Positions 37,801 through 53,520 of a DNA stretch of 64,000 nucleotides are shown in pieces. The DNA lies in IMG/VR virus record IMGVR_UViG_3300043447_000408, positions 1-64,000 of that record. One strand, given 5' to 3'. A model generated the notes under the pieces. The model was given only the letters and a program-made list of their open reading frames with translations. It was not told the origin of the DNA and ran no database searches. This DNA is from a virus. Lineage: Duplodnaviria; Heunggongvirae; Uroviricota; Caudoviricetes. The number at the start of each line of letters is the position of its first letter. Position 1 is the first letter of the stretch. The translations under genes were made by a program, and so were the position numbers.

Positions 37801-38677
37801 CACTACTTGTAAAACTATTCAAACTACTTGTTGCAGTATGAATAGCATTTATGTTTGTAGTGTTTGAACTTGTATATGAATTTAAACTACTTGTTGCAGT
37901 ATGAATCGAATTAATATTGGTAGTGTTACTACTCGTGTAAGAATTCAATGCATTGATTGCGGTGTTGTTCGAACCTGTATATGTGTTTAACGCCGCAATT
38001 GAACCGGTTACCCCCTCAATAGAAGTTAATCTACCATCAGCACTTGAAGAGAATGAATTCAAACTTGCGGTTGCGGTGTGAATTGCATTTATATTTGTAG
38101 TGTTTGAACTTGTATAGGTGTTCAAACTTCCTGTTGATGTTTGTAACGTACCAATAATAGTATTGTTACTTCCTGTATATGTATTCAAACTCGCAGTTGA
38201 GGTATGAATAGCATTAATATTGGTTGTATTAGATGATGTATAGGTGTTTATCGAACCTGTAGATGTCTCCAATGCGACTAACCTATCCGAAGCACTTGAT
38301 GTGAATGTGTTTAAACTTGCTGTTGAGGTTTGTAATGTACCGATAACAGTATTATTACTTCCTGTATATGTGTTTAACGAGGATATTGAACCAGTAACTC
38401 CTTCAATTGAATTTAATCTACCGTGAGCACTTGATGTGAATGTGTTTAAACTTGCTGTTGAGGTTTCTATTGCAGTTAGTCTACCGTTGGTAGTTCCTGA
38501 GTAAGCGTAAAAACTTGAGGTTAGGGTATATCTCGGAGCAAAAGATGCGGTATCTGCACTTGTGGTGTTACCACTAATGGTCGCATTAATTATTCCAAGT
38601 ACCGTTAAGTTTCCCTGAATCTCCGCTGAAGAGGATACCGACAGGGAACCCGATATGTGTGCGTCAAATATATTCAT
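34847..38677 (-). CDS. tail fiber protein with C-terminal intramolecular chaperone (peptidase S74-like) domain
   Basis: 1276 aa; about 20-aa Ser/Thr/Asn repeats; GYTPYNATNPNGYI x3; C-terminal SSIRYKKDIETISYGLDKVLQLRGVTYVKK...coiled coil typical of S74 autoproteolytic chaperone domains. Confidence 0.85.
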   Translation of the reverse strand: MNIFDAHISGSLSVSSSAEIQGNLTVLGIINATISGNTTSADTASFAPRYTLTSSFYAYSGTTNGRLTAIETSTASLNTFTSSAHGRLNSIEGVTGSISSLNTYTGSNNTVIGTLQTSTASLNTFTSSASDRLVALETSTGSINTYTSSNTTNINAIHTSTASLNTYTGSNNTIIGTLQTSTGSLNTYTSSNTTNINAIHTATASLNSFSSSADGRLTSIEGVTGSIAALNTYTGSNNTAINALNSYTSSNTTNINSIHTATSSLNSYTSSNTTNINAIHTATSSLNSFTSSASGRLTALETASSSLNSYTSSNTTAITALNSFTTSFNTAFGLSGANVTVKGNLTVQGSTTQVDSTTVNIGDNIIQLNGTGATNAGIVVRDATSPTLTSGSFLWDSTNDKWVAGPLGSEDEVVLKTASQALTNKTISGGSNTLSNIGNSSLTNSSISIAGTSTSLGGSITAATILTSTGVWSGSAQLPSGVVSGSAQVIANLPSGTVSGSSQVLAGTTIHSGAFFNGISVVSGSGQISFNGITDKPTLVSGSSQVLNGSGVWSGSAQLPSGVVSGSSQITFLSISSIPSGLVSGSSQVLAGTTIHSGSFFNGISVVSGSAQISFNGITDKPALVSGSSQITFLSISSIPSGLVSGSSQITLTSTQVTNGLGYTPYNATNPNGYISSYTETDTLASVTARGASSSTQITLSGKLRMSSDLGVDAGNALYFGREESFGGSNTGGDDYGYITFDNNSTTYSDAGGTERSVLRIGTSNDGVGNVEDNLAIESTANIYLNPAGVIYRGNKATRYTIWDSGNLTNLNQLTNGPGYITGINSSAVTTALGYTPYNATNPNGYITGINSSAVTTALGYTPYNATNPNGYITGISFANVSSKPTTLTGYGITDALPLAGGTLTGDLRFNNSGYGRIAFTDNYHGMILRGNPNNAAGDITAGDVTSLVQHSGDFRFYRTNGTINEIYFQVNATAPYWRGNTIYHAGNIPTWNQNTTGTASNITSYTINQSVGTSNAPTFAGLTSNGTLTVNGTGIFTSGASDWQISLRSTDTWAGMEFDDTNSSPDYIWYHGGAQTFAIGGGGSNVSGKKLHVHGGMTIGSGLVSTSTTSNGLSVEGSITISTNNATGGGIILADDGDIVDLNDAYCSMRFSAGVRIFSANRGGSAVITLGSNGNLTTSGTITENSSIRYKKDIETISYGLDKVLQLRGVTYVKKENNVKEMGVIAEEIAEILPDVVLYDSEGKVDSVSYGRITAVLIEAIKDLKKEINELKNNG
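37690..38500 (-). repeat. intragenic tandem repeats encoding SLNTYTGSNNT-type units
   Basis: near-identical nucleotide blocks recur, e.g. cacttgatgtgaatgtgtttaaacttgctgttgaggttt twice near 38290 and 38420. Confidence 0.6.
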
Positions 38678-38731: not shown

Positions 38732-39505
38732 TTATTTAGGTAAATAATCGGGAAAATTGGATTTTACAAACTGAAGTAGTTTTTTGGAGTATTCTTCGTT
38801 GTGTTTTGGTGTTGCGTGTTTACCATCAATTGAGAATTCACGGAAATCTCCGTAGTCACCATCGAACCGATATTTGTCAGAATATTCGTTATCCATCAGG
38901 AAAGAACCGTTCCATATATATGGGATGCTCCTATTCTCCAAATAATTGGTGATTAGAAGATGGTTTTTGTACCAATTGATTAAATCGTTCTCGTCGTGGG
39001 TAATCCTTGCAATTGATTTGTACTCCTCTTTCCCCTCACTATCTTCCTTAAAATAACCCCAAGGAGTCATATGAAATGGTTCCAACTCTCCGTTGTATCG
39101 ATAGTATTCTTTACGGGATGGGTAGGTGTACATTAAGTTAACCAAATTAGGTCTTATCTTTTGGGTTAAGGTGATTACACATCTAGCAATGTAATCATTA
39201 CTACGTCCACCAAACCCCAAATTTAAATCTACCCCGTTCTGTATCTGTCTTGAGAAATAGTGAGGCCAAGTTTGGTTATCACTAACCCCTACACCTTCGG
39301 TGTGGGAACAACCAACTGACATTATTCTAAACCCATCCTTATATAATGAATCTCCCCTGAACCCCATTTCATTGTATGTGTAGGTATTCGTTTCGGAAAT
39401 GTCGGAACCTGATGTGTTAAATGTTTTATTCCTACGTTCATCTAATCTCCAAGAATGGTTACCCACCTCAAACCCCGAACTTGTCCAAAACTTCATTGAT
39501 TTCAT
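38732..39505 (-). CDS. SGNH hydrolase-like protein (GCS variant)
   Basis: block I SVGCSHTEGVGV, block V DGKHATPKHNEE. Confidence 0.55.
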   Translation of the reverse strand: MKSMKFWTSSGFEVGNHSWRLDERRNKTFNTSGSDISETNTYTYNEMGFRGDSLYKDGFRIMSVGCSHTEGVGVSDNQTWPHYFSRQIQNGVDLNLGFGGRSNDYIARCVITLTQKIRPNLVNLMYTYPSRKEYYRYNGELEPFHMTPWGYFKEDSEGKEEYKSIARITHDENDLINWYKNHLLITNYLENRSIPYIWNGSFLMDNEYSDKYRFDGDYGDFREFSIDGKHATPKHNEEYSKKLLQFVKSNFPDYLPK

Positions 39506-40200
39506 ATTAAATTCTTGTTTCTAATGAAATGACTAACTTTATTTTTATCCGCAATGTGACAAACCCCATTCATTGATAACTCATCAAACGATGGGTTATG
39601 TTTATATAGGTAATTTATATCATCAAAGTATAAATTTAAATATTGTTGATTTAAAGTTATTGGTGGTATCCCGTGGTAACGTTTGTTAAAAAAATCGTAA
39701 TTTGACTCAATAACATCTAAAACTTCGGAATATGCTTTATTCACATTTCTAAAGTTGCGAGACGCAATTATTGAGGTGTTATTCAATTCCATATAATCTA
39801 ACGAGGTATTTGAATATAGTTTATGTAGTTCGGTAAAATGTTCAATTTGTGAACTCGATAAAGGATGTTTGTAACATAAATTTAGTTTATCCTTTTTAAT
39901 TATATCTAATAATTTTTTAATATCCTCAACTACTAAATCATTATCCAAATGTATAAAAGGAAACTGAATTTCGGATAGTACTTTTAATTTAGGATATGAC
40001 CATATTGTTGGTTTTCGGTATCTATCCGATAGGGACAATTCAACCCAATCATATACTAAGTCTAAATTTTTAAAATAATCAATATCGGAATATATTATAG
40101 GAACTTCACCCTGTATATTCAAACTTTGAATTGAGTACTTTAAGTAAATTTCAGTAATCTCTTTGAGTCTGGTTGGTAGATATGTGAATACTATTCTCAT
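39502..40200 (-). CDS. hypothetical protein
   Basis: 232-aa ORF, ends NLI. Confidence 0.5.
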   Translation of the reverse strand: MRIVFTYLPTRLKEITEIYLKYSIQSLNIQGEVPIIYSDIDYFKNLDLVYDWVELSLSDRYRKPTIWSYPKLKVLSEIQFPFIHLDNDLVVEDIKKLLDIIKKDKLNLCYKHPLSSSQIEHFTELHKLYSNTSLDYMELNNTSIIASRNFRNVNKAYSEVLDVIESNYDFFNKRYHGIPPITLNQQYLNLYFDDINYLYKHNPSFDELSMNGVCHIADKNKVSHFIRNKNLI

Positions 40201-41444
40201 TATAGTAATGGTCGTTTTGGTATGGGTTCGTTAGATATTGTACCATTAACCATCATATCTAACATTGAATTTTCTTTATGTAATCTATCAATAAAAATGT
40301 CGTGACATTCTTTAATCCAATCCTTACATAGTTGATAATTGTTGTCAAAATCACTAATGAATGTTCTTACAAAATCCGCAAATAGTTTAGCATTTCCTTG
40401 ATATTGTTTGGACTCATCATAAAAAGGATGTTTTCTAATCCCAACCAAATCCATAATACAATCGTATGGATATGAATGAGTGGAAATGAAAGGAACGTTT
40501 GCTAAAATTAATCCTAATGACTTTTCACTTAGGTATTGACTGTGGTAATCAGCAGAATTATGAGCCCAAGATTCGTCACATATTTGAATTTTAGACATTG
40601 GTAAAATCCTCAAGAAAAAGTCAAGACCTACAGTTATGTTTGTTAATATCCTTAAGTTCTGAAAATCAATTTCAGAATCGTAATCATTTAAGTAAGCTCC
40701 TTCAATTTTTCTATATTTTGGTTGGACTGAGTTATGTTCAATAACATTCGTTTGTGAAACAAATATATCTTCTATTTGTGTTAACTCTTCAGCTATTTTA
40801 ACTCTGAGGGGTTTATGTGCTCTAACCGAATAGCCCATTTTATATTTTGGAACTATAACATCACTAACATTTTTATAATCATAAAACCACCTAATACTAA
40901 TCATTTCATTCCATTGAAAAATAATGTTAGTGAATGGATTGTATAAGTTTGGGTGTTTACTTAATACTATTTTATTAGTAAAAATATTATCAGTTAATAT
41001 ATAATGATTTGATAATCTAAGAATTTGATTCTCAATTTCTTCAATTTGTATTGTTCCGTCTGTCTTTACTTTTGCGTTATCATTCTTAATGAATATTTTT
41101 TCAGTTCTAAATAAAGATACCACCCAATTCTTTTTGTCTTCAATGAGGTCCGCCATTCTTTCGATTATGGCAAAAGAATCCGAACCTTTATGTTCGGTGT
41201 TTTCAAAATTTGTATCTTGACCTCTTTGTCTAAGTGCTCCAAAGAAATCAATTATGTGAATCCCCTCATCATCATTTATCTCAGGATTAAATGACACTTC
41301 AAAGTTCTTTCCTCCGTACTCAAATGTGATATCCCTAATCGCACCGTTAGTGTTATCCACTTCAACCATCTCTTTGTTCTTAACATTATGAAAGAACTTT
41401 TGAAATAACATATCGGTATAATAATGATGAACGAATATTTTCAT
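40200..41444 (-). CDS. hypothetical protein (414 aa)
   Basis: long ORF, no motif recognised. Confidence 0.5.
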   Translation of the reverse strand: MKIFVHHYYTDMLFQKFFHNVKNKEMVEVDNTNGAIRDITFEYGGKNFEVSFNPEINDDEGIHIIDFFGALRQRGQDTNFENTEHKGSDSFAIIERMADLIEDKKNWVVSLFRTEKIFIKNDNAKVKTDGTIQIEEIENQILRLSNHYILTDNIFTNKIVLSKHPNLYNPFTNIIFQWNEMISIRWFYDYKNVSDVIVPKYKMGYSVRAHKPLRVKIAEELTQIEDIFVSQTNVIEHNSVQPKYRKIEGAYLNDYDSEIDFQNLRILTNITVGLDFFLRILPMSKIQICDESWAHNSADYHSQYLSEKSLGLILANVPFISTHSYPYDCIMDLVGIRKHPFYDESKQYQGNAKLFADFVRTFISDFDNNYQLCKDWIKECHDIFIDRLHKENSMLDMMVNGTISNEPIPKRPLL

Positions 41445-41447
41445 AGG

Positions 41448-41945
41448 TTAAATTAATTTCTTGATTGTTTTATCTCTATCACCTTTTCTTAATCTCTCCT
41501 CACTGTTGAAATCAAAAATATCTTCATAATACGTAATTGGGACATTAAGTTTGGTGGATAAGTCACTTAACTCCTTATTCCATTTTATAATGTCGTTGTG
41601 GCACAGTTCAAAAATATCTGTAGGTATCTCTTCATAAACATAAGGTTTGTTTGAGTCATAATTTTTAATCTTTGAGAAGTATGTTTGGTAAGCGTGTGAT
41701 TCTGTACACTCTTTAACGTTTCTTCTCGTTAATAATATCACCTCATCAAAGTTTTTTGATAGTTGTATATTATCGTTGTGATGACATATTATTGTTTTAA
41801 CCACAACATTCTTTTCACTATTATATTCAACTCTACCAGTACCATCAAACGGTTCAAACAAAGGTTTTAAATTTTTCTCTTTTGCTAATTTGTGTAACAA
41901 TGAAGTAGAACCTGTTCTTGGTAGGGAGATTATTAATACACTCAT
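41448..41945 (-). CDS. NodH/Stf0-like sulfotransferase
   Basis: 5'-PSB-like loop IISLPRTGSTSLL at N-terminus; LLTRRN..ES 3'-PB-like; short (165 aa). Confidence 0.5.
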   Translation of the reverse strand: MSVLIISLPRTGSTSLLHKLAKEKNLKPLFEPFDGTGRVEYNSEKNVVVKTIICHHNDNIQLSKNFDEVILLTRRNVKECTESHAYQTYFSKIKNYDSNKPYVYEEIPTDIFELCHNDIIKWNKELSDLSTKLNVPITYYEDIFDFNSEERLRKGDRDKTIKKLI

Positions 41946-42508
41946 AACAATGTTTTATTACTTTTAACTCTCGGATAATCAAAATCAGTTTCGGTCATCC
42001 ACACATTTAACGCATATCTTATTCCCTTAGTTACCGGTAAAACTCCGTGATATGTTTCCGAACCATTGAATGAAATACTATCACCCAATTTCAAATCACA
42101 TAATGTTAAACCGTCCAATTTCTCAAAGTTGTATGGTGGATTCTCATCTTGGGTTAACACAAATTGACCACCTTCAAAATCGTCAGAAAGAACGATAACA
42201 GTCGTCAACTCACTTGACTTGTCTTTATGTAGATTAAGGTACCTACCATCATAGTACGATGTTAAACTTATATTGAAATTTTTTAAATTAAATGTTGAAT
42301 AATCAAACCATAATTTAAACTCTCCATTTTTGTAATTGGTTGTTAATAAATTAATAATTCTTTCTTTAAAATTGGAATCGTACATTCTTCTACAATCCCA
42401 TACTTCGGTTGGTTTATATGAAAAGGGTTCACCGAACTCAAGACAAAAATCAATTATATCTTTAGCGGTTTCTCTATCACAAAAATTATTGTTTATGTTA
42501 TAATTCAT
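41942..42508 (-). CDS. 2OG-Fe(II) oxygenase (prolyl-4-hydroxylase-like)
   Basis: HKD (HxD), distal YHGV His, RYALNVW Arg. Confidence 0.7.
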   Translation of the reverse strand: MNYNINNNFCDRETAKDIIDFCLEFGEPFSYKPTEVWDCRRMYDSNFKERIINLLTTNYKNGEFKLWFDYSTFNLKNFNISLTSYYDGRYLNLHKDKSSELTTVIVLSDDFEGGQFVLTQDENPPYNFEKLDGLTLCDLKLGDSISFNGSETYHGVLPVTKGIRYALNVWMTETDFDYPRVKSNKTLL

Positions 42509-43326
42509 AGTAGATATGAATTTTTCTTTTTATTATGAATTAGTAAATTACCTTCATTTATGAATTTATACAATTCCTCAGCAATTAATTTATATCCATT
42601 GTTACTTGGATGTTTACCTGCGGTTGTGTCCACCCATCGATTATTATCCTCCCAAACATCTTTTCTATTTGTGTCGATTAACAAATTAGCCATTGTTTTA
42701 TCTCTATAACCCCAATATCTTTCACCCTCAATCAAATGAGTTTTATCAACCAGAACATCAATATTTTTGTTAATCATAGTATCAAACGCATCACAAAAAA
42801 CATATCTAATCCCCAACTCTTTAAACATAAATTGTAAGTGTAGAATGTAGTTTTGGTTAACTATGTCATAGTACGTGTCATTAAACAAATTACTAATGTA
42901 GTAATCTCTAAAATTTTTTTCTGCTCTATTATAGTTTACATTATCCCCACTAACACCGTCGAAAATATATTTGAAAAGATGTTGTTTACTCTTATATCGT
43001 TGACCCCAAATATGAAAACTATTCTCGTTCGGAAAAAATGGTAATTGGTCTCTTAATGAGGAGGACCACATAATAACAACAAAATCATCTTGAGTGATGA
43101 TTTCATTTTTTAATTGATAACAAACTGTATTGAATATTGAGTTGTTTGAAAAAGCCCCAACTCCGTTATTTTTAACTTCACATTCAAGTAGTTCTGATAA
43201 GTGTTTTGGCCAACAATATTTTTGTCTTATGTTAGTTCTTTCCTCAGGAATTTCTGTTGTTAATTCTTCCTCAACATTACCCCCAACACCTTCTGTCCAA
43301 CTATCTCCATATGTGAATAACTTCAT
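42505..43326 (-). CDS. SGNH/GDSL hydrolase
   Basis: block I LFTYGDSWTEGVGG, block V AGKHPSNNGYKLIAE. Confidence 0.6.
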   Translation of the reverse strand: MKLFTYGDSWTEGVGGNVEEELTTEIPEERTNIRQKYCWPKHLSELLECEVKNNGVGAFSNNSIFNTVCYQLKNEIITQDDFVVIMWSSSLRDQLPFFPNENSFHIWGQRYKSKQHLFKYIFDGVSGDNVNYNRAEKNFRDYYISNLFNDTYYDIVNQNYILHLQFMFKELGIRYVFCDAFDTMINKNIDVLVDKTHLIEGERYWGYRDKTMANLLIDTNRKDVWEDNNRWVDTTAGKHPSNNGYKLIAEELYKFINEGNLLIHNKKKNSYLL

Positions 43327-43337
43327 AAAACATTATC

Positions 43338-43481
43338 TTATTCCCCCAAGTGTTTAACCTTAATAGCAGTTACAACCGCCTCAAACGCAGTTGCTACTTT
43401 TGTTTTTAGTTCACTTGAAATGGGTGCAACAATTGCTTTAATTGTTTGTGCGGGTCTTTCTATTCTTTCTTTTTGTGCCAT
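43338..43481 (-). CDS. small hypothetical protein (47 aa), not in ORF track
   Basis: MAQKERIERPAQTIKAIVAPISSELKTKVATAFEAVVTAIKVKHLGE fills the gap between flanking genes. Confidence 0.3.
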   Translation of the reverse strand: MAQKERIERPAQTIKAIVAPISSELKTKVATAFEAVVTAIKVKHLGE

Positions 43482-43493
43482 AATAAATTAGTT

Positions 43494-44987
43494 TTAGATT
43501 TTAGGTAATGGTACGTTACTACAACTTGGGCAGTACCAAGAATTACACCAATGTCCACAATAGTTCCAAGGACACCAACAAGTGTTGTGCATCACACTGA
43601 AATCACCGTCACCAATGTCGACTAAGAATAAATCCGAAGATTCAAAGTCCAAACTGTAAATGGTTTTTTGTGCGTGTTCCATTTCCAAACCAGTAATTTC
43701 AACAGTTGTTAATAGATTGGTATTCGCGTCTGTGATTACCAATTTGTCACCAACATACATTTTATTGACTTTTTCAAATCTGGTTGAAGTTGAGTCTTTC
43801 TCCTCAATATAATAAGTTGCTGACGGTGCGTCGGTCCAAGTTCTACCATCAGATAATGTTATTCTGATGTAAATCGTATCAACAGCGCCAGACACCATCG
43901 CATTTAATGTGGTTCCGGTTTGAATTAATGTTGAGTTGTCTTGTGCAACTGTACTATCCCACCCAAATGTTTCAATCTTACTTTGCTCAAATTTAGCTGC
44001 GTGGTTATCATTTAAGTCTACGTAATCAATTGAACGAACATAATCACCCAATTCTATGGTATCAACATCTAATAATGTTCCGTCATATTTTAATATAACA
44101 CTATCATCATCAGTGTGATAATCATTCTTTGCGTAGTTACCTAATTCCTTAGTAATATATTTGTATCTACTTTTCTGATTTAACTTATTAGTTCCCGTAA
44201 CAAATTCATCATCTGAGAATGTTAATGGTATAATTGTTGATTGTGTATATCCACCCATATGGATAACATCCAATTCAGGTCCATATATAATGTCAATACT
44301 TCTTATTATTGAATATCTACCTTGGACTAAGTTGTTTTCGGAAAAAATGAATTCTTGAGCTAAGTGATTTGGTTCTACTAAATTTGCCTTCATAGATTCT
44401 AAATCCTCATTATTTGATATTCTATATAGTGCAGGATAATCCATTGGATTATAAGAAGGGTTTCTTGGTTTTATTAAAATATTTGGGGTCGATGTGGTTG
44501 TATAATCCACTGAATCTATTGTATCAAAATTTATTTCACTAGTCTCAAAATATGTTTTTGGGATAAACTCTGACTGACCCATTAAATTAAAAAATTCAAA
44601 CTTATCCGCACAGTAGGTTTCATCGACTAAAGCGGTGGTATCAAAGGATTGTCTCAGTATAAACTTGTGAACATCGTCTTCAATGTATGGTACCGTAACA
44701 GAACCCACTGGCACAATAAATTCAGTGAATGACATATTATTTTCTTGACACTTTTCTTCTAAAATTTTCTTAAATCTATATTGTTCGGTTAAGGGTTTAT
44801 ATGCATCCCCTTCGGTCCATATTAAATAGAATTCAGTAATGTTGTTGTCAACCAACATCGTAAATAACGAGGTATAATCAAGGAAATCAGCACCCTCATT
44901 ATAAATTGTGGTGTTTGTGTTTATTTCCAAAAACTTCACCGAGTCTCCTGTTTGTAGTAAGTCACTACCAATTATAGTTGCTTTCAT
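43494..44987 (-). CDS. hypothetical protein with C-terminal Cys/Trp-rich tail
   Basis: 497 aa ending HNTCWCPWNYCGHWCNSWYCPSCSNVPLPKI. Confidence 0.55.
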   Translation of the reverse strand: MKATIIGSDLLQTGDSVKFLEINTNTTIYNEGADFLDYTSLFTMLVDNNITEFYLIWTEGDAYKPLTEQYRFKKILEEKCQENNMSFTEFIVPVGSVTVPYIEDDVHKFILRQSFDTTALVDETYCADKFEFFNLMGQSEFIPKTYFETSEINFDTIDSVDYTTTSTPNILIKPRNPSYNPMDYPALYRISNNEDLESMKANLVEPNHLAQEFIFSENNLVQGRYSIIRSIDIIYGPELDVIHMGGYTQSTIIPLTFSDDEFVTGTNKLNQKSRYKYITKELGNYAKNDYHTDDDSVILKYDGTLLDVDTIELGDYVRSIDYVDLNDNHAAKFEQSKIETFGWDSTVAQDNSTLIQTGTTLNAMVSGAVDTIYIRITLSDGRTWTDAPSATYYIEEKDSTSTRFEKVNKMYVGDKLVITDANTNLLTTVEITGLEMEHAQKTIYSLDFESSDLFLVDIGDGDFSVMHNTCWCPWNYCGHWCNSWYCPSCSNVPLPKI

Positions 44988-45078
44988 AAATTTTGTTTCC
45001 TTACAATAAATATATCTATAAAAATATTATTAGAAAAGGATATTTATAATGTTTATTTTTTTATTATATATGTATATA

Positions 45079-45366
45079 TTAAATTAAAGTACTATTTTTC
45101 TTACTCATAATGGGTGTTATATATTCTGAATCAACCTCTTCCCAATAACCTTTGGTACAAGGATTAAAATTCTTCGAAAAAACTTTTTTGTTTAATGGGC
45201 ATCCACAATCACCACAATAAGCAGACCATTTTACACCTTTCAAAACTTCTTTCCTATATTCACAACCCAAACAAACATTTAATCTTTTTTCTGCCAACTC
45301 CTCTTCTATCGGGGTTGGGTTGAATGATGTTTTCCAAGCTTCAAAAATTTCTTTATAGTCTATCAT
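45079..45366 (-). CDS. small Cys-rich (zinc-ribbon-like) protein
   Basis: CLGCEY...YCGDCGCP...NPC. Confidence 0.45.
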   Translation of the reverse strand: MIDYKEIFEAWKTSFNPTPIEEELAEKRLNVCLGCEYRKEVLKGVKWSAYCGDCGCPLNKKVFSKNFNPCTKGYWEEVDSEYITPIMSKKNSTLI

Positions 45367-46154
45367 ATTAATGTCTTGGTTAATTTTGGTAGGTCGTAAT
45401 AATCATAAATACTGTTGTATTTTTTTATAAAATCATCATCTAAATTCACAACACATTTCATATGTTTACTTGAATTAACCGAATGAAGCTCAAATGGTTT
45501 TTCTAAAATATTTGATACCCATTCCTCTAACTTATCTAATTCATCAAAATCAAACCAAATTATTGTTTGGTCATTATTTGTCCAATTTGATACGGGGGTT
45601 AATAGAATGTCAATCATATTAACTGCATATCCCTTGGTGTTAGATTTAAAATATTCTTCTTCTGATTTTTTAAATTTTGATGTTACTGAGATATCTATTT
45701 TTTCATCAATCAATTTCAAATCCATTAGAAATTCACAAATTTTATTCCATCTTTGTTTTTTAGTTGCAACATCTTCTTTTGTAAAAAAGAATAATTCATC
45801 CAATGATAGTTTGGAGAACTTTTTATAAATCTTACTAAATCCCATCCTTTTTAAATCAAATAAGACGTGTTTATATAATGAATAAAATCTTTCGTGTCTT
45901 TGTCTTTTAACAGCAATAATCGGGTAGTTTCTACCAAATTTAGTCTGTAAATCAATTAAAGATTCGTGTCCGTGATAGATATAATTCATTAAGTCTTTTG
46001 TATCTACCGATTTAAAATCAATGTCTGAATTTGCTAATTCCCACTCACCATTATGTGTCTGTACTTTAACATCATTAACTAAACAAGAATAATGAAATGC
46101 GGTAGACGCACATCTCGGTAAACTCAAATAAAAAAACTTATTTTCAACTAACAT
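45363..46154 (-). CDS. sulfotransferase-like protein
   Basis: N-terminal FYLSLPRCASTAF resembles the PSB loop of the 41448-41945 protein. Confidence 0.4.
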   Translation of the reverse strand: MLVENKFFYLSLPRCASTAFHYSCLVNDVKVQTHNGEWELANSDIDFKSVDTKDLMNYIYHGHESLIDLQTKFGRNYPIIAVKRQRHERFYSLYKHVLFDLKRMGFSKIYKKFSKLSLDELFFFTKEDVATKKQRWNKICEFLMDLKLIDEKIDISVTSKFKKSEEEYFKSNTKGYAVNMIDILLTPVSNWTNNDQTIIWFDFDELDKLEEWVSNILEKPFELHSVNSSKHMKCVVNLDDDFIKKYNSIYDYYDLPKLTKTLI

Positions 46155-46723
46155 TATATTAAGGATTTTTTAATTATTTTGGAGGGCCATACATTTATGG
46201 AGTATCTAACTCCGCTTGTTATTTCTTTTACTGAATGTACGATGTTTGAATCAAAAATGAATACACTACCTTCTTTTTTAGGTACCGAATACTCAGTTTC
46301 GTTTATCATATACTTAACATCTCCATCCTCGTATTGGTCGTTTAATTGAATTATATAAGTTATTGTTGCACCATTTACAATTTCGTGACTATCGGGATGC
46401 CAATCTAAAAAATCACCTTCCCCATATCTGTTAAATGAATAATTGTGTATTCGATTATACGTGATTCCATTATATGGGTTTAATTCATTAGATAAAGTAA
46501 TGATTTTATCGGTTAACTCTTTTAGTATTGGTAAGTCTAATAATCCGTTAGTAAAATATGTTCCCATTCTTTTATTACCACTATACTCAGTATTTTCTGT
46601 TAATACTTTCCCGTTAACCACTAATGATGATTTCATTTGTACTAAATTAGTTGATTCACCTAACTTTATTAAAGACTTGCACTCATCAGGAGTTAAAAAA
46701 TTTTCAATGTACCTCGTAAACAT
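46154..46723 (-). CDS. 2OG-Fe(II) oxygenase (P4H-like)
   Basis: WHPDSHE, HSVKE, RYSINVW. Confidence 0.7.
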   Translation of the reverse strand: MFTRYIENFLTPDECKSLIKLGESTNLVQMKSSLVVNGKVLTENTEYSGNKRMGTYFTNGLLDLPILKELTDKIITLSNELNPYNGITYNRIHNYSFNRYGEGDFLDWHPDSHEIVNGATITYIIQLNDQYEDGDVKYMINETEYSVPKKEGSVFIFDSNIVHSVKEITSGVRYSINVWPSKIIKKSLI

Positions 46724-47377
46724 TTATATCAGAGATTTTTCTTTTTTTATATAATCGAACCCAACATTACCGGCAACCACAATTCTATCTATAGTTGAGT
46801 TAGGTGCATTATTTGGGCTATGTGGCATATCCGCCTCCATAATAATTAAATCATCTTCTTCGGGTCTAATCCAATATTCTTTTTTATTGTTTCCTTTAAA
46901 ATATAAAACTCCGTCTTCACCATTCATAACATCAGGCATTTGAATATAATAAACGTACGTATAATGAGGAATAAATGATTTAATTTCTTTGTTTATGTCT
47001 GTGTGTACGTGATATTTGTCTACCCCTTTCAATTCCTCGTGTTTGAATTGTATTTGAACTGGGTCAGTCGAGCGGACAACGTTAACCCAAGCATCTGTAT
47101 TAATTTTATTATATAAAATATTTTTTTCTTTGTATAAATCTTTACAACGGTCAATTCCAATTTGAATGATTTCATCCATTTTTGTTTTAATATCAATTTC
47201 ACCAGTAAAATTGATATTCTGATTCCATTCTTTTACAAAACCATACCCATCAGTTTTAACATCTGGTTGGGATTCTATAATAGAATTGGCTTCTTTTAAT
47301 AAATCCGTTTTATCAGATAAACGATTTAATTTACCTCTCCAAATATATGTCTCTTCGTCAAAGTATAATTTCTCCAT
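46724..47377 (-). CDS. putative cupin/2OG-Fe(II) oxygenase-like protein
   Basis: HVHTD and distal MPHSP, RIVVAG; weaker match. Confidence 0.4.
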   Translation of the reverse strand: MEKLYFDEETYIWRGKLNRLSDKTDLLKEANSIIESQPDVKTDGYGFVKEWNQNINFTGEIDIKTKMDEIIQIGIDRCKDLYKEKNILYNKINTDAWVNVVRSTDPVQIQFKHEELKGVDKYHVHTDINKEIKSFIPHYTYVYYIQMPDVMNGEDGVLYFKGNNKKEYWIRPEEDDLIIMEADMPHSPNNAPNSTIDRIVVAGNVGFDYIKKEKSLI

Positions 47378-47378
47378 A

Positions 47379-48623
47379 CTATATCAATTCTTTTTTAAGT
47401 ACTTTTTTGTTCTTTCTGAAAATGGTTAGATAATTGTTTACAAAAAAAGTAAGTTCGTTTGGTGTAATATCTTCCAATTCAAATGATGATAGTAATTCCA
47501 CATCACTTCTAACTGTGATTGAGTTATTTTTGTCTAATATCTTTTTTAGTTTTGAAGGTATCGGCATTGATGTACAGTCTTTCCAAAACTGCGTGTCATC
47601 TCTCTCACACAAATAATGATATCTTATGAAATTTAAATTCTGTTCGTTTATTTGATAACACCATTTATTATATCTCTCAACATATTGTTCATCGAAGTTT
47701 AAATCAATTAACTTCTTTAACTGCATTATAGTCGACATCAATGATGTCGCTTCTAAAGGTTCAATAAACCCATAAGATAGTCCTATCGATATACTATTCC
47801 CAATCCAACTTCTTTTATGTGTACCAGGATTAAAGTTAAAAACTTTTTGTAAAGTTACTTCGTGACCTAAACGATTCTCAATCTCTTTCTTTGCATCTTC
47901 TACGGTTATATATTTGTCATTGAAAACATAACCGCAACCCCATCTATGTTGTAATGGGATTTTAAACATCCAACCACAATCCATCGACACCATCTCGGTA
48001 TATGTCTTATCATTTAATTGATATTTGTTTTCTTGTGGTAAAAAGAACGCTATTGCCTTATTCATCATCAAGTAATCGGTATACCCAATCCACTCTTCTT
48101 TATGTACACCATCAATAACGATTTTAGCAAATCCACTACAATCAAATACAAAATCTAAATCAATGGTTGTACCATCTTTCATTTTTAATTCTGAAATGAT
48201 ACTATTTTCATTTTTTATCTCACTCACCTCACCGTCAACCCAATTAACTCCTCTACTAATTGCAATTTCTTTAAAGTATTGTGCAACTAATCTTGCATCA
48301 AAATGATAAGCATACGATTTATTAAATTCGCTTGGTCCGTCACCAAAGAAAAGATGCTTTGATAATTCATTATTACCTGTCCAATTATATAAATGTAATC
48401 CACCTTTTACTGTTGATTTAGTTTTCTCAAAGAATTCATTCTGATTAATATCTAATAACACGAGCATCTTACCGAAGTTGGATGTTCCTCCTTCACCAGC
48501 ACCCAATATTCCAATTTTAGAACTCTCTACTAATGTAACACTAACATCCTTCCAAAATTTATTAACCACCAATGAGGTTAACCATCCCGCAGTACCACCG
48601 CCAATTATTACAACTTTTTTCAT
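47379..48623 (-). CDS. flavin-dependent halogenase (tryptophan halogenase family)
   Basis: N-terminal VVIIGGGTAGWLTS; GWMFKIPL resembling the WxWxIP motif (second W is F); AGEGG near N-terminus. Confidence 0.65.
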   Translation of the reverse strand: MKKVVIIGGGTAGWLTSLVVNKFWKDVSVTLVESSKIGILGAGEGGTSNFGKMLVLLDINQNEFFEKTKSTVKGGLHLYNWTGNNELSKHLFFGDGPSEFNKSYAYHFDARLVAQYFKEIAISRGVNWVDGEVSEIKNENSIISELKMKDGTTIDLDFVFDCSGFAKIVIDGVHKEEWIGYTDYLMMNKAIAFFLPQENKYQLNDKTYTEMVSMDCGWMFKIPLQHRWGCGYVFNDKYITVEDAKKEIENRLGHEVTLQKVFNFNPGTHKRSWIGNSISIGLSYGFIEPLEATSLMSTIMQLKKLIDLNFDEQYVERYNKWCYQINEQNLNFIRYHYLCERDDTQFWKDCTSMPIPSKLKKILDKNNSITVRSDVELLSSFELEDITPNELTFFVNNYLTIFRKNKKVLKKELI

Positions 48624-49168
48624 ATTAAATTTTGTTTATTTGGGGTAGTCTTAATTATCGATACCCAATTTACTAATGAATATCTTGTACCCGATTCAAC
48701 CGGTGTGACTCTATGTCTTAAACCCGATTCGAAAACATATAATGTACCTGCTCTTTTTTGTGAGGGTATGTTGTCACCTTTCGAATCTTTTATTTCTAAA
48801 AATCCACCTTCATAATCATCGTTTAAAAGAATGACAGTTGACACGATTCTTTCTTTAAAGGTGGTTGAGTCCTTATCGGTATGCCAACCATAATACTCCC
48901 CGACTTTGTATTCAGTAAATTGAAAAGAGCCGAGACCTGTGACCTCAGCACCATTCAATTTAAAAGATTCTCTTAATATTTCTTTTAATCTAATATTAAC
49001 ATCACCCAAATCATTAATCCAAGATACTGAAGATTTTCTTTCGTTCGGATTTCCGTTCGCAACTCCTGCAGTTTCTAATGTTAATTCTTTGTGACACTTG
49101 TTTAACACATAATGACATTCATCATTTGATAAAAAGTTTTCAAATATGTAGAATTCATTATTTGTCAT
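48620..49168 (-). CDS. 2OG-Fe(II) oxygenase (P4H-like)
   Basis: WHTDKD, HRVTPV, RYSLVNW. Confidence 0.7.
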   Translation of the reverse strand: MTNNEFYIFENFLSNDECHYVLNKCHKELTLETAGVANGNPNERKSSVSWINDLGDVNIRLKEILRESFKLNGAEVTGLGSFQFTEYKVGEYYGWHTDKDSTTFKERIVSTVILLNDDYEGGFLEIKDSKGDNIPSQKRAGTLYVFESGLRHRVTPVESGTRYSLVNWVSIIKTTPNKQNLI

Positions 49169-49379
49169 TTTCCTTTCTTAATCCAAATTTTATCCACTTA
49201 TACCATATCCTTTCGTGAATATAATATTGAATTGGTTTATATACAAGTTCAGCAATACCAAATGCAGCTCCGACTTTAATATCACCACTAACCCACCACA
49301 TAATTACAAATCCGATTAATGTACTTATAACTCTGTAGGATATAGTTTTGGCTATATGTCGTTTACGTTCTACTACCAT
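49158..49379 (-). CDS. small two-TM membrane protein
   Basis: 73 aa, two hydrophobic helices. Confidence 0.45.
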   Translation of the reverse strand: MVVERKRHIAKTISYRVISTLIGFVIMWWVSGDIKVGAAFGIAELVYKPIQYYIHERIWYKWIKFGLRKENDK

Positions 49380-49725
49380 CGTTGTTTATTTCTCCATTAC
49401 GGATTTTAGTACCACTTATTGCCGCAACATCTGCAGGTGGTTCGTGATAGATTACTTCATACCCAACTCCTCTACCATAATTCACCGATTCAATGTCAGG
49501 AATAATTGATAATAATAACTTATCGAAATTGTCATTAAAGAAAGGTTCTTTAATTAATTCTTCAAACACTTCTCGTGCCGTTTTGGGATTGTTTTCATCA
49601 ACTTCAACATCTCTAATTGCCACCCATACATTTTTACCTTGGTCTAATTGTTGTCTAATTAACCATTCGTGTCCTTTGTGCCAATTCTGCCATCTTCCGA
49701 TGTACAGTGCATACTTTTTACTCAT
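49363..49725 (-). CDS. HxGH nucleotidyltransferase (NMNAT/cytidylyltransferase-like)
   Basis: YIGRWQNWHKGHEWLI (HxGH) and C-terminal ISGTKIRN (ISxTxIR) motifs. Confidence 0.6.
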   Translation of the reverse strand: MSKKYALYIGRWQNWHKGHEWLIRQQLDQGKNVWVAIRDVEVDENNPKTAREVFEELIKEPFFNDNFDKLLLSIIPDIESVNYGRGVGYEVIYHEPPADVAAISGTKIRNGEINNDGSRT

Positions 49726-50156
49726 AAAAATAATTTATTGATTAATTCTGTGTACGATACCATTAATTCGGTATCGGTTGTGTTAATTGATATATAATTT
49801 TCGGTTGGGGGTTCGTAGTCCTTAACGTGAAAGTTTTCCCTACCTCTAATGTCAGTTGTATGAACGTATATTTCAATTGCACCGGATTTACCTTTAAGGT
49901 CATCCCTTAAATCTTTATATGGTGACACTAACGACGCCACCACATTGTATCCTTTTTCATTTAGAAAATATGCAATATCCATAGCCTTTTGAATATTTGC
50001 ACGTCTTCCATTTTCAGAATAATCTTTATTTTTAAAGATGTCTCTTAAATCGTCACCATCAATGTGAATGGTGTTTCCAACATTTAAATACCCAACTAAC
50101 TTTTTAGCTAAGGTTGTTTTACCTGCACCAGGTTGTCCTGTAAACCAATAAATCAT
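49722..50156 (-). CDS. cysC: adenylylsulfate (APS) kinase
   Basis: FTGQPGAGKTTLA, IDGDDLR, RRANIQKAMDIAYFL, SLVSPYKDLRDD match the CysC consensus throughout. Confidence 0.8.
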   Translation of the reverse strand: MIYWFTGQPGAGKTTLAKKLVGYLNVGNTIHIDGDDLRDIFKNKDYSENGRRANIQKAMDIAYFLNEKGYNVVASLVSPYKDLRDDLKGKSGAIEIYVHTTDIRGRENFHVKDYEPPTENYISINTTDTELMVSYTELINKLFL

Positions 50157-50188: not shown

Positions 50189-51133
50189 TCAAATTCGTAA
50201 AAGATTCAAATAGTCCTCATATCCGTTTGTAATCACAATATGTGTCCATTCGTTAATTCTTTCTGTCCTATATTCCTCATTATTAACGATGTGTGATTTT
50301 TTCAACCATATGTGGTCATATTCTATTTTGGGTGTATTCCTTACAGTACCTTCATATTCCATCCAATCGGAAATGTACCCTTGTTTAAACCTGTTGTCGT
50401 ATGGGTCGGCAAATTGTATGAAAAGTCTGTTCTCAATATCACCTACCTTCAAGTCTAAATGTCTGATTGTGTATCCTAAAATATTTTGGTCCGACATTAA
50501 CCATAACCAATCTAAAACATTGTCATAAGTTTTATTTACAATTCTCATATGAAGTTCACGATACTTGTTAAGTAACAACTTATTATTAACAAATAAGAAT
50601 GATGTATTTGGTATTGCCATCCTTTCCTCAAACTCAGGCATATGTAACTTAACATCATTTAATTGATAGTCGTGGATGTACATATGACCTCTTAACATTT
50701 CCCAATGTGTATGAACAACATCATAATTAAATAACCATTTAGGTAATGGTGTCTTAATTATTAAATCTAAATCTAAAAACACAAATGGTGGTTTTTCGTG
50801 ACAAATAGAAAATATTTTACCACTAGTCCAAAATTGTGCAGGATTGACTAATGTCTTATCTAATTTATTCAATACATCAACATCAATTTCATCAAATAAA
50901 TCGATAAACCCTACCTTCTTGTAGTATTCATAACCAACGGTATCAGTATACAGTTTAATAGGGACTCCTCCATATTTTTTAGCACTGGTTATTGCCGCTA
51001 ATTGCATATACAACTCGTATGGTTGTAATTTATAATCATCCGTTTCGTCCGCAATTGTTATGTCTTTTTTATATCCATTGAATTTGTCTCGATGGAAAAA
51101 TGGTTTTGTCCAATTTACAAAAATTATTTTCAT
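50189..51133 (-). CDS. putative DXD glycosyltransferase
   Basis: FVFLDLDLI DxD-like motif. Confidence 0.4.
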   Translation of the reverse strand: MKIIFVNWTKPFFHRDKFNGYKKDITIADETDDYKLQPYELYMQLAAITSAKKYGGVPIKLYTDTVGYEYYKKVGFIDLFDEIDVDVLNKLDKTLVNPAQFWTSGKIFSICHEKPPFVFLDLDLIIKTPLPKWLFNYDVVHTHWEMLRGHMYIHDYQLNDVKLHMPEFEERMAIPNTSFLFVNNKLLLNKYRELHMRIVNKTYDNVLDWLWLMSDQNILGYTIRHLDLKVGDIENRLFIQFADPYDNRFKQGYISDWMEYEGTVRNTPKIEYDHIWLKKSHIVNNEEYRTERINEWTHIVITNGYEDYLNLLRI

Positions 51134-51759
51134 TATATATCAATTTTTGTAAATGGAATATCATTATTAGTTAAAACTATTGAAAGTGCCAACCCTTCCG
51201 CAGAACCTAATACAAATGGTCTTATATATGTATTATCATTCATTACAGAAATGTAATCAAATACTGTTTGTAGGATTTGTAATTCTTTATTAATCAGTTT
51301 ATAATTAATGGTTTTTTTAAAGACCATAACCTGTTCTAAAATTGTTGGGTAATCGATAATGGGTATGTTTTTGTAACGAAAATACTCAAACAAATATCTA
51401 AAACAAGGGTCGTCTTCATATCCATAAAAATTACCCTTTGGCCAATTCGACGTGTATATGAAGTCGGATTCCGAACGAGATGATATGTTTGTAAGAATAT
51501 GTTTAGGTAATGCAGATGTACCGTCCATATAAATGACATTCTTACCATATTCTTCAACTATTTTTAATGAAAAATGTATTTTATCAAAATAATTAAAAAT
51601 TGGTCTATTATATAATGATATATCATTTATATCATAATGTGATGGTTCGTCTGTTAGTACTTTGATAGTAAAACCTGAGTTTTTTAAGTCCCAATAATAA
51701 TCTTTTATTTCTTGGTTATAATACTCACCAACCGCCACTAATACAATAATGTCGTCCAT
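51133..51759 (-). CDS. hypothetical protein
   Basis: 208-aa ORF. Confidence 0.45.
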   Translation of the reverse strand: MDDIIVLVAVGEYYNQEIKDYYWDLKNSGFTIKVLTDEPSHYDINDISLYNRPIFNYFDKIHFSLKIVEEYGKNVIYMDGTSALPKHILTNISSRSESDFIYTSNWPKGNFYGYEDDPCFRYLFEYFRYKNIPIIDYPTILEQVMVFKKTINYKLINKELQILQTVFDYISVMNDNTYIRPFVLGSAEGLALSIVLTNNDIPFTKIDI

Positions 51760-51760
51760 T

Positions 51761-51877
51761 TTAGTGTTTATAAATGAATGGGTCTCTTTTTTTAAGTTCG
51801 GCTAATTTCTTTTTAAATTCTTTTTTCTTTTTCCATTCTACCCATTTGTGGGTTAACCATCCAATAAATGCTTTCAT
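51761..51877 (-). CDS. small basic protein (38 aa), not in ORF track
   Basis: ATG overlaps the TGA of the upstream carbamoyltransferase gene (ATGA); MKAFIGWLTHKWVEWKKKKEF... Confidence 0.3.
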   Translation of the reverse strand: MKAFIGWLTHKWVEWKKKKEFKKKLAELKKRDPFIYKH

Positions 51878-53511
51878 TTGTTTCCGTTTTTATAGATAAT
51901 ATAATCACCAATCACCAATATGTCCATAGCAGTGTCCAAATATGTTAGTATAGCATCTTCTGGTGTTAAAACCATTGTTTTATCTTTAACATTAAAAGAT
52001 GTATTCAATAATATTGGGTAATCAGTTCTCTCTTCAAATTCTTTTAATAGATGATAAATTGGGTTATTTGGTGTGACAGATTGAACTCTAGCACTACCAT
52101 CAACGTGTGTAACCGCAGGTAACTTATCTCTATATTTTTTTAACACATTAACCACTTGATTCATATATGGAATATATTCTTTTGAATCAAAGAACTCACT
52201 TTGACGTTCAAAAATTACCATAGGGGCAAATGGTCTAAACCCTTCTCTTTTTTTAATAACTTTATTAATCCTTTCTTGCATATCGGGTACTGTTGGATTT
52301 GCCAATATTGACCTATTACCCAACGCCCTTGCACCAAATTCTATTTTATCTTGGAACCACCCAACAACTAACCCCATACTTAAATATTGTGCAGTTCTTT
52401 TATATAATCTTTCTTTTGTATGTTTTCTATAAAATATTTTATGTCCGTATTTGTTTAATGTATTTTGAATTTCATTATGACTATAAGAAGGACCTAAAAA
52501 TGGTGTTGGTGAAATTCTCACATTAAGTCCTTTAACTTTTGATAGGTAGTCTAAACAAGAACCAATACAAGAACCTGCGTCAGAAGGTGCCGGTGGAACC
52601 CATACCTTTTTAAAAATTCCGTTTTTAATTATTTTACCATTAGCACATCCATTATATGCACAACCACCCCCAATACAAATGTTATCTGAATAATAAAACA
52701 ATTTCGCATCTTTTATTAATTGAAAAAACAACTCTTCATATCTTTCCTGTACTGATGCTGCTAAGTCTTTGTGGTCATCGGTAAGAGGTGTATTTGGTAA
52801 TCTGTTTTCAATACCTAACAAATCAGCTAATTTGTAATTAAACATTGTGTCATCGGATTTATTCCATATGAAACAATCCATATTACAGGATAATTTATAT
52901 CCATCAAAATTAATTAACTGAGCAACTTTACTTCTAAATCTTTCGGGGTCACCATATGCGGCCAAACCCATTACTTTATACTCACCTTCGTTTGGTTTAA
53001 AACCCAGAAAAGCAGTCATTGCAGAATAATATAACCCTAATGAATCAGGGTATTCGATTGTCTTAATATTATGAACCACTCCATTAATACCTTTACCAAA
53101 TGAAACCGTTGAAGTTTCACCAACACCGTCAACAGATACTATAACCGCCTTATCAAAATTCGATGATAAATACGAATAAGCCATATGTGACATATGGTGT
53201 GAGGTATAGTGTATCTTATCAGATATCTTTCTTAAATTCCACCAAACTTTAATGTTGGTTTTTAGTGAGGTAAAAAAAGATTTCTTTCTTTTGAATCTGA
53301 GTCTTGGGTTTTCATAATAACAAACCGCTTCAATGTCCGATTTTTTTAAATTGAAGTGGTCAAAAATGTATTCTATGGTCTTTTCAGGAAATGAACTATC
53401 GTGTTTGATTCCAGTGAACTTTTCTTCCTCACAAGCAAAGACTAATTCCCCATCTTTAAAAAGACAAGCAGAAGAATCGTGATAATATGCGGATACTCCA
53501 ATAATATACAT
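51874..53511 (-). CDS. carbamoyltransferase (NodU/CmcH family)
   Basis: 545 aa; N-terminal IIGVSAYYHDSSACL signature. Confidence 0.8.
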   Translation of the reverse strand: MYIIGVSAYYHDSSACLFKDGELVFACEEEKFTGIKHDSSFPEKTIEYIFDHFNLKKSDIEAVCYYENPRLRFKRKKSFFTSLKTNIKVWWNLRKISDKIHYTSHHMSHMAYSYLSSNFDKAVIVSVDGVGETSTVSFGKGINGVVHNIKTIEYPDSLGLYYSAMTAFLGFKPNEGEYKVMGLAAYGDPERFRSKVAQLINFDGYKLSCNMDCFIWNKSDDTMFNYKLADLLGIENRLPNTPLTDDHKDLAASVQERYEELFFQLIKDAKLFYYSDNICIGGGCAYNGCANGKIIKNGIFKKVWVPPAPSDAGSCIGSCLDYLSKVKGLNVRISPTPFLGPSYSHNEIQNTLNKYGHKIFYRKHTKERLYKRTAQYLSMGLVVGWFQDKIEFGARALGNRSILANPTVPDMQERINKVIKKREGFRPFAPMVIFERQSEFFDSKEYIPYMNQVVNVLKKYRDKLPAVTHVDGSARVQSVTPNNPIYHLLKEFEERTDYPILLNTSFNVKDKTMVLTPEDAILTYLDTAMDILVIGDYIIYKNGNK

Positions 53512-53520
53512 CTATTATAA

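Follow-up and report, generated by a model that had tools for sequence, protein, structure and literature searches.

The virus record IMGVR_UViG_3300043447_000408 of IMG/VR (Caudoviricetes) was analysed over its first 64,000 nucleotides, here called the window. Its minus strand carries a long block of genes, between 38.7 and 56.5 kb, and within it what is on balance best understood as a phage sulfation cassette lying inside a larger island for decoration of a surface glycan or of protein, in which three coupled genes would supply the sulfate donor. The broader claim, that a unit for supply of 3'-phosphoadenosine 5'-phosphosulfate (PAPS) is here combined with sulfotransferases, can be advanced with good confidence. 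The cassette is real and conserved, and its most interesting part is a widespread enzyme family, represented in the window by a minimal nucleotidyltransferase (NTase). As a tentative proposal, this NTase may be an ATP sulfurylase of a third class, derived from nicotinamide mononucleotide adenylyltransferases (NMNATs), with no relation to Sat or CysDN and no Pfam entry.

The catalytic steps that we infer would run as follows: the NTase would adenylylate sulfate (ATP + SO4 -> APS + PPi, where APS is adenosine 5'-phosphosulfate); a short-lid kinase would phosphorylate the 3'-OH of APS to give PAPS; a small DUF2061 membrane protein accompanies them and may hold both to the membrane or connect them with the entry of sulfate; and two sulfotransferases, ST1 and ST2, would transfer sulfate from PAPS to an acceptor. 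Elsewhere, an APS reductase would use NTase-made APS directly.

The kinase, its coupled partners and the sulfotransferases

The genes lie where the initial annotation placed them, all on the minus strand. The kinase gene (49722-50156, 144 aa) leads; its stop overlaps the start of the NTase gene (49363-49725, 120 aa, with the HxGH-type motif WHKGH) in an ATGA, bearing out the translational coupling that had been noted between kinase and adjacent HxGH nucleotidyltransferase. The DUF2061 gene (49158-49379, 73 aa) starts 17 nt inside the NTase gene; this third coupled member had been left out of the module as first described. Its two-helix product matches Pfam PF09834 over nearly the whole profile (57.3 bits, cut-off 23.1, E 2e-15, positions 1-51 of 52).

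On its sequence, the kinase is a member of the APS-kinase family in a divergent, short-lid form. Its score with Pfam APS_kinase (PF01583) is 58.5 bits (cut-off 21.1, E 1e-15), in an alignment that spans profile positions 4-110 of 152, and its motifs GQPGAGKTT, IDGDDLR and SLVSPYKD are confirmed. The 21 PDB sequences matched at E<=1e-3 are without exception APS kinases or APS-kinase domains (best 8a8h, E 1e-9; the matches span residues ~2-101 only), and the NadR chains 1lw7 and 6gye are not among them. The P-loop, DGDxxR, KDYSENGRRAN (aromatic-S...R..N) and SLVSPY align with E. coli CysC and with the kinase domains of two Sat-CysC proteins; the Walker-A P-loop, DGDxxR, aromatic-S...R..N and S(F/L)(I/V)SP we take to be the contacts for APS and ATP. 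Because of this family membership and these conserved substrate-binding motifs, the kinase is expected to convert APS to PAPS.

The initial annotation had called the APS kinase unambiguous. Pfam, PDB and motifs uphold the family, but the assignment is less clear-cut than that: the same alignment shows ~14 aa of the lid helix to be deleted, RDxKGLYKKARxGEIxxFTG being replaced by TTDIRGRENFHVKD, and because of this deletion the protein falls below every NCBIfam CysC cut-off (NF004041, 63.9 vs 127; TIGR00455, 59.6 vs 138.7). The full-lid motif is missing from all 55 viral kinases and from 43 of 61 cellular kinases partnered with an NTase; the other 18 are full-lid canonical CysC. Short-lid forms also occur outside phages, in marine group III (MG-III) archaea, some Marinimicrobia and Flavobacteriales, and kinases of the Pelagibacter and Salvo type have an altered DGD motif as well.

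Such divergence invites the supposition that the short-lid kinase is not an APS kinase at all: with the NTase it might make some other 3'-phospho-adenylylated or nucleotide-activated compound, much as phosphopantetheine adenylyltransferase (PPAT) works with dephospho-CoA kinase, or it might phosphorylate a glycan intermediate. The lost lid helix, the missed NCBIfam cut-offs, the altered DGD motifs and some weak PPAT-like matches of the NTase fit that supposition, which is nonetheless very unlikely. Canonical CysC and short-lid kinases alternate as partners of the NTase family, and do so even among Marinimicrobia; a canonical full-lid CysC is not likely to use any substrate but APS, and its presence as partner argues against an NTase that makes another adenylylated compound. 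The window kinase, moreover, keeps the P-loop, DGDxxR, aromatic-S, R..N and SxxSP, and two sulfotransferases that would require PAPS stand in the same conserved island.

Conservation was followed in 80 viral loci related to the NTase unit. DUF2061 lies directly after the NTase in 79 of the 80 and is its most constant partner; one NTase-DUF2061 fusion protein (P0442) is found among the representatives of the NTase family. Of the 60 loci whose upstream sequence is long enough, 46 have a kinase directly before the NTase. Where full 10-kb flanks were available, ST1 or ST2 was present in 22 of 25 loci and both in 17. Neither the 80 loci nor the window holds a homologue of Sat, CysD or CysN. Carbamoyltransferase, tryptophan-halogenase-like, radical-SAM, 2-oxoglutarate (2OG)-oxygenase and DUF6734 genes recur around the unit. 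Among viral protein families, PHROG 10255 already combines kinase and NTase, and cultured phages carry kinase-NTase fusions: gp32 of Xylella phage Salvo (L001:5578-6324) and AAY80_227 of Stenotrophomonas phage DLP_6 (L002:5590-6321), both annotated as 'kinase' or hypothetical.

The two sulfotransferases, 7.4 kb (ST1) and 3.2 kb (ST2) from the NTase gene, had been described as NodH-type. ST2 does belong to the sulfotransferase superfamily and ST1 probably does, so that the refutation by kinship with non-sulfotransferase families does not apply; the type, however, differs, ST2 being Sulfotransfer_2/HS2ST-like and ST1 nearest to Stf0/Sulfotransfer_3. As single sequences neither reaches a Pfam threshold (the window ST2 has no Pfam match of any kind), and PDB searches with single sequences or with a first profile returned noise for both; each falls in a large metagenomic family without an assigned name. 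Both are much shorter than HS2ST and Stf0, and very divergent from them.

ST2 (45363-46154, 263 aa, LPRCAST) could be assigned with a broader profile (A7) that draws on divergent viral homologues, some of no more than 18% identity, and in which only P13, H61, H63, R84 and S92 are invariant. This profile finds heparan-sulfate 2-O-sulfotransferase (HS2ST; 4ndz/3f5f) at E 1.6e-5, and the alignment pairs PKTASTSF with PRCASTSF, HGH with H.H and RDPIERLVS with R-x7-S: that is, the 5'-phosphosulfate-binding (5'-PSB) loop, the 3'-phosphate-binding (3'-PB) element and a candidate catalytic His, supplying the profile alignment of binding motifs that the initial annotation had proposed. A homologue in a related viral island (L003:11263-11964) passes the Pfam Sulfotransfer_2 cut-off (29.8 vs 22 bits) and matches the ST2 family in hhalign at 99.8% probability. 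With these matches, the assignment of ST2 as a predicted sulfotransferase is settled.

ST1 (41448-41945, 165 aa, LPRTGST) is near the minimal sulfotransferase core and is probably also a sulfotransferase. Among structures it matches Stf0 best; P-loop kinases come close in score, as the shared fold would lead one to expect, but the PRTGST loop lacks the Walker-A lysine and the R-x7-S (3'-PB) element is conserved, so that the protein shows the PSB loop and 3'-PB element of the sulfotransferase fold. Weak matches to Sulfotransfer_3 occur in 15 of 25 members of the family (best E 0.009), and in a local search of small size the hidden Markov model (HMM) of the family picks up a Sulfotransfer_1 domain verified with Pfam (E 4e-6); a profile search of the PDB with ST1 gave no match.

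Descent and proposed activity of the nucleotidyltransferase

By descent, as read from profiles, the NTase is NMNAT-like and not Sat. It has no Pfam match, and its matches to NCBIfam models of archaeal NMNAT are weak and below the cut-offs (NF002243, 27.6 vs 127; TIGR01527, 22.5 vs 181.2). An exhaustive search assembled a family of 815 cluster representatives; the diverse profile then found archaeal NMNATs in the PDB (1f9a, E 5e-13; 1ej2, 4e-11), the NadM-Nudix protein 2qjt (1.6e-10), NadR (4.5e-4) and, more weakly, PPATs, with no Sat or PAPSS sulfurylase at E<=10. This profile was used to establish descent in place of a structure model. The structure prediction and fold search recommended by the initial annotation for 49363-49725 were carried out, but the model was mediocre (pLDDT 72, from a shallow alignment of 80-94% identity) and a Foldseek search with it returned no match at E<=1e-3, leaving the fold search uninformative. 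Of the identities first offered for this protein, 'NMNAT-like' holds for its ancestry, through the match to 1f9a, and 'minimal sulfate-activating enzyme' is the one that genomic associations favor.

GRxQPxHxGH, NPxT and SGTxxR are common to the family and the archaeal NMNATs (the window NTase has N for P, GRWQNWH). The HMM alignment falls into two blocks, profile 6-76 with 1f9a 4-75 and profile 86-130 with 1f9a 110-152; between profile positions 76 and 86, ~34 NMNAT residues have no counterpart, and a short, nearly invariant loop, YGR(G/D)VGY, stands in their place. The missing segment, between strand 4 and the C-terminal SGT motif, presumably carries the nicotinamide-binding residues of NMNATs. 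Nearly invariant in the family are HxGH, ISxTxxR and several arginines, one of them in V-R-D after strand 2; R38 and R85 are specific to the family.

The possibility that the NTase is a cryptic Sat was considered and discarded. Against two genuine Sat-CysC proteins, hhalign gave probabilities of only 2.5% and 4.5%. The Sat motifs FQTRNPMHRAH and VGRDHAG bear a loose resemblance at most to GRWQNWHKGH and YGRGVGY in the NTase (GRDVGY in many homologues), and the Sat consensus motifs QxRNPxHxxH and GRDHAG are not present. BLAST alignments of an NTase-kinase fusion with Sat-CysC do extend into the NTase domain, but by profile comparison only the ISGTxxR segment is common.

One way to understand an NMNAT-like protein beside a P-loop kinase is as NAD+ salvage on the pattern of NadR, with a nicotinamide-riboside kinase and an NMN adenylyltransferase that sustain phage NAD+ and have nothing to do with the sulfotransferases. 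The nearest solved relatives of the NTase (NMNATs, NadM and NadR) do make NAD; some homologues are named NMNAT by JGI, and 'nadM' is listed in virome surveys (PMC8066274); and the Salvo and DLP_6 fusions lie amid genes of replication and nucleotide metabolism (MazG, topoisomerase, DNA ligase) with no annotated sulfotransferase nearby. Even so, little credence can be given to this reading, which is ranked low together with the CoA-like one (PPAT plus dephospho-CoA kinase). The PDB matches of the kinase are to APS kinases and not to the NadR kinase domain; many cellular fusion partners are full-lid canonical CysC; the ~34-aa NMNAT segment is absent, and the better of the NCBIfam NMNAT scores, 27.6, is far below its cut-off of 127; and the neighbors of the family include sulfotransferases, APS reductase and sulfite reductase, with no NAD-related family among the 25 most frequent flanking families.

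Fusions and neighborhoods are also the evidence for the proposal that the NTase is a sulfurylase. Fusion to an APS-kinase domain is seen in 34 of the 150 best NTase representatives, in both orders (23 kinase-NTase, 11 NTase-kinase). The family is found in Pelagibacteraceae, Marinimicrobia, Flavobacteriales, Acidobacteriota, Omnitrophota, Planctomycetota, the candidate phyla radiation (CPR), MG-III and others; among 80 cellular loci, the NTase is fused to an APS-kinase homologue (17) or immediately downstream of one (44) in 61. Sat is present in none of the 80 and CysD/CysN in one. The sulfurylase reaction is thermodynamically unfavorable, which is the usual rationale for Sat-CysC fusions; the same equilibrium would also explain fusions of NTase and kinase in both orders.

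Sulfotransferases recur beside these pairs. Haloarchaeal megaplasmids of several genera carry a CysC-NTase fusion (WP_227356187.1 is a haloarchaeal example), and in two such loci read in detail an annotated sulfotransferase is followed directly by the fusion, its kinase part a canonical CysC (an 80-aa Haladaptatus ORF between the two was considered as a DUF2061 protein and is not one). In Marinimicrobia the order is a Sulfotransfer_5 gene (E 4e-48), kinase, NTase. When the genes up to two places away from the NTase are counted (147 genes, 38 diverse loci), sulfotransferase domains come out as the commonest specific function (Sulfotransfer_3, 7; Sulfotransfer_1, 5; Sulfotransfer_5, 3); a regular expression for sulfotransferase motifs undercounted them badly (3 loci) by comparison with Pfam.

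One neighborhood has no kinase. In the Nitrospiraceae metagenome-assembled genome (MAG) NP85, an operon (L035:6191-10432) encodes an Rrf2 regulator, an 823-aa sulfite reductase with fused HEPN-like and TusA domains, an Fe-S-type APS reductase and the NTase. The APS reductase, a CysH, carries CC...CxxC plus KECGLH, a signature that, in work of Kopriva et al. from 2002, is said to mark APS-dependent enzymes. Probes for Sat and CysD/CysN found no match in the 20-kb locus, and the operon has no recognizable sulfurylase gene; sulfate adenylylation is the only step of sulfate assimilation for which it has no gene, and the NTase occupies the place where an ATP sulfurylase would be expected.

A different view grants the PAPS pathway and removes the sulfurylase: the kinase would use APS made by the host, and the NTase would be an accessory to the pathway or an unrelated activator. 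It could be a nucleotide-binding regulatory partner, or could activate some other small phosphorylated or anionic substrate of the decoration pathway. Here the observations that weigh against a sulfurylase come together. There is no significant homology of the NTase to Sat by hhalign. In an Acidobacteriota MAG (L032:5117-16010), cysN and cysD lie right beside an NTase-kinase fusion, in a sulfated-glycan locus that also holds an ABC-2 exporter pair and a 796-aa Sulfotransfer_1-GT2 fusion; this is the sole coexistence with a conventional sulfurylase among the 80 cellular loci, and it means that the NTase cannot in every case be a plain substitute for a sulfurylase. DUF2061, the constant partner, occurs also with conventional NodPQ. 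In 14 of the 60 viral loci with enough upstream sequence there is no kinase, and some viral loci retain the NTase and DUF2061 but not the kinase. Finally, NTase homologues of Thermodesulfobacteriota and Dadabacteria stand alone amid housekeeping genes unrelated to sulfur.

An accessory role is nevertheless judged unlikely, if less so than the alternatives already discussed. The near-invariance of HxGH, ISxTxxR and the arginines argues for catalysis; fusions in both orders, and the position in NP85 where no kinase is present, are most simply explained by production of APS; and Sat and CysDN are absent from 79 of the 80 cellular loci and from all of the viral ones. We infer that the NTase takes part in activating sulfate, and a non-canonical ATP sulfurylase is its most likely identity.

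Known systems and wider significance

The closest analogue at the level of the system is NodPQ-NodH, with NodU: a dedicated unit for PAPS supply beside a sulfotransferase in a glycan-decoration locus that can include a NodU-type carbamoyltransferase. In Mesorhizobium nod loci, as here, there is a DUF2061 gene, placed between nodH and nodPQ. The difference lies in the bearer and in the first enzyme: NodPQ is a CysD/CysN-CysC sulfurylase-kinase on a symbiosis plasmid, whereas the present unit is in a phage, has an NMNAT-derived NTase and is without CysD, CysN or Sat. Apart from the question of PAPS supply, the combination of carbamoyltransferase and sulfation genes echoes the chemistry of Nod-factor decoration.

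The closest analogue in architecture is the bifunctional PAPS synthase (bacterial Sat-CysC, metazoan PAPSS), in which a domain of adenylyltransferase fold is likewise fused or coupled to an APS kinase; PAPS synthases, too, occur in both domain orders. Sat-CysC proteins and NTase-kinase fusions have in common a C-terminal ISGTxxR segment before the kinase. A Serratia plasmid cluster (Sat/CysC, TauE, sulfotransferase, CysQ) is the conventional counterpart. The Sat part of two plasmid Sat-CysC proteins, however, is ~370-385 aa against ~120 aa for the NTase, which lacks QxRNPxHxxH and GRDHAG, shows no profile homology to Sat and clusters with NMNATs. By descent the closest relatives are the archaeal and NadM NMNATs. 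NadR resembles the unit in combining an NMNAT domain with a P-loop kinase; the NTase family departs from NMNATs and NadR in its YGR(G/D)VGY loop, its APS-kinase-family partner and its context of sulfate activation and sulfotransfer.

The initial annotation had supposed that sulfation encoded by a phage would be unusual. Its components, at least, have been met before: Sulfotransfer_3 genes are on record for OM43 phages and Synechococcus phage S-SRM01 (PMC10580990), and freshwater and marine viromes have yielded viral auxiliary genes called 'cysC' and 'nadM' (PMC8066274, PMC9789665). These surveyed genes may include the same families as the kinase and the NTase. The surveys treat them singly, as auxiliary metabolic genes of sulfate assimilation or of NAD metabolism; here they form one unit with DUF2061 and sulfotransferases, and this coupling points to sulfation and not to assimilation. 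No report of the coupled unit, of a link between the NTase and sulfate activation, or of an NMNAT-like sulfurylase was found in open-access papers and preprints; a search of the literature for APS-kinase/nucleotidyltransferase fusions or a SAR11 APS kinase returned nothing relevant, and no experimental study of sulfated decoration in phages was found there.

Two types of enzyme, Sat and CysDN, are taken to account for sulfate activation, and predictions of sulfur metabolism from genomes rely on finding them. If the NTase is indeed a sulfurylase, such predictions would change for abundant marine and freshwater microbes and viruses: SAR11, SAR406/Marinimicrobia, MG-III, haloarchaea, Omnitrophota, Planctomycetota, CPR and phages could activate sulfate without a recognized sulfurylase gene, and viral 'cysC' and 'nadM' would be reread as one sulfation unit and not as parts of two unrelated pathways. 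To our knowledge, SAR11 is described as lacking assimilatory sulfate reduction. Besides L091 and L050, ~30 other Pelagibacteraceae loci carry the NTase (one example is at L091:9534-10351), usually directly after a short APS-kinase-like gene; the carriers include a complete genome and strain HIMB1483. The SAR11 pair is flanked by genes for a Rieske ring-hydroxylating oxygenase on one side and an enoyl-CoA hydratase on the other.

The surrounding island and the phage

The genes around the cassette bear on the acceptor. Upstream of the kinase (50189-54546, minus strand) lie DUF6734-like genes (Pfam DUF6734) and, at 51874-53511 on the same strand, a NodU/CmcH-type carbamoyltransferase (Pfam Carbam_trans_N/C, E 5e-62 and 5e-56), whose position upstream of the kinase is kept in related contigs. 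Between the three-gene unit and ST2, within 46154-49168 on the minus strand, are three genes resembling 2OG-Fe(II) oxygenases and a flavin-dependent halogenase of the tryptophan-halogenase family (47379-48623, Pfam Trp_halogenase, E 1.4e-88); in related viral islands the halogenase family is again present, along with radical-SAM genes. Counting one more next to ST1, the oxygenase-like genes number four (41942-42508, 46154-46723, 46724-47377 and 48620-49168; Pfam 2OG-FeII_Oxy_3, one below the Pfam cut-off) and are interleaved with the sulfotransferases and the halogenase. Just downstream of the island, at 34847-38677, a fiber-like protein of 1276 aa has many tandem repeats of the TSTASLNTYTSSNTTNINAIHT type and a C-terminal region that we take to resemble an intramolecular chaperone domain. 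Glycosyltransferases and sugar epimerases (epimerase/dehydratase) are encoded elsewhere in the window.

The affinity of ST2 with carbohydrate O-sulfotransferases, the carbamoyltransferase, DUF6734, epimerase/dehydratase and glycosyltransferase neighbors, and the adjacent fiber-like gene suggest a sulfated glycan on the virion or on the envelope of the infected cell. The acceptor would then plausibly be a sugar, part of a glycan that the neighboring carbamoyltransferase, DUF6734, oxygenase and sugar-epimerase genes build or modify. A self-sufficient PAPS supply and two sulfotransferases, kept across a large uncultured phage lineage beside fiber-like and sugar-modifying genes, would point to a sulfated decoration of virion or infected-cell surface. 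Sulfation of protein is a possible alternative, because of the many oxygenases of prolyl-4-hydroxylase type and the halogenase in the block.

Phage origin is accepted, because the gene content is phage-like and the relatives in IMG/VR are on viral contigs; the lineage is an uncultured one. The genome is low in GC (~32%), and elsewhere in the window there are an RnlA-type RNA ligase and an M23 peptidase with a peptidoglycan-binding domain. The NTase has 445 relatives on IMG/VR viral contigs, which reach 316 kb, and three of these relatives are 99-100% identical to it; the related viral lineage has been sampled in marine and freshwater settings. Searches of cultured phages gave no DNA similarity to the region (megablast, blastn) and no match to ST1 or ST2 (tblastn). 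The window also encodes a thymidylate-synthase-family protein (ThyA, 364 aa) and a C5 cytosine DNA methyltransferase, listed as a pair at 20803-21897 and 15434-16387 in that order, which together are possible DNA-modification functions. The thymidylate synthase is unusually long, its 364 aa aligning to profile positions 29-307 of 335, which implies an insertion.

Three smaller observations concern the block itself. A Cys-rich protein of 95 aa (45079-45366, minus strand), whose start overlaps the ST2 stop, matches phrog_13558, a family without assigned function. A protein of 497 aa with a Cys-rich C-terminus (HNTCWCPWNYCGHWCNSWYCPSCS; 43494-44987) matches no family; in two related loci, L007 and L008, an ORF of similar size (495 aa) comes directly after DUF2061. 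Lastly, 11 of 13 consecutive unrelated genes at 39502-49168 (minus strand), among them the sulfotransferases, 2OG oxygenases, halogenase and an SGNH-like gene, end in [KN]-x-[LI]-[IL] before any of the stop codons (IKKLI, TKTLI, KKSLI, KKELI and KQNLI are examples). The kinase, NTase and DUF2061 are without this tail, and it is kept in ST1 and ST2 homologues of other contigs; it may be a C-terminal signal that these proteins have in common, or may result from the way in which the genes adjoin.

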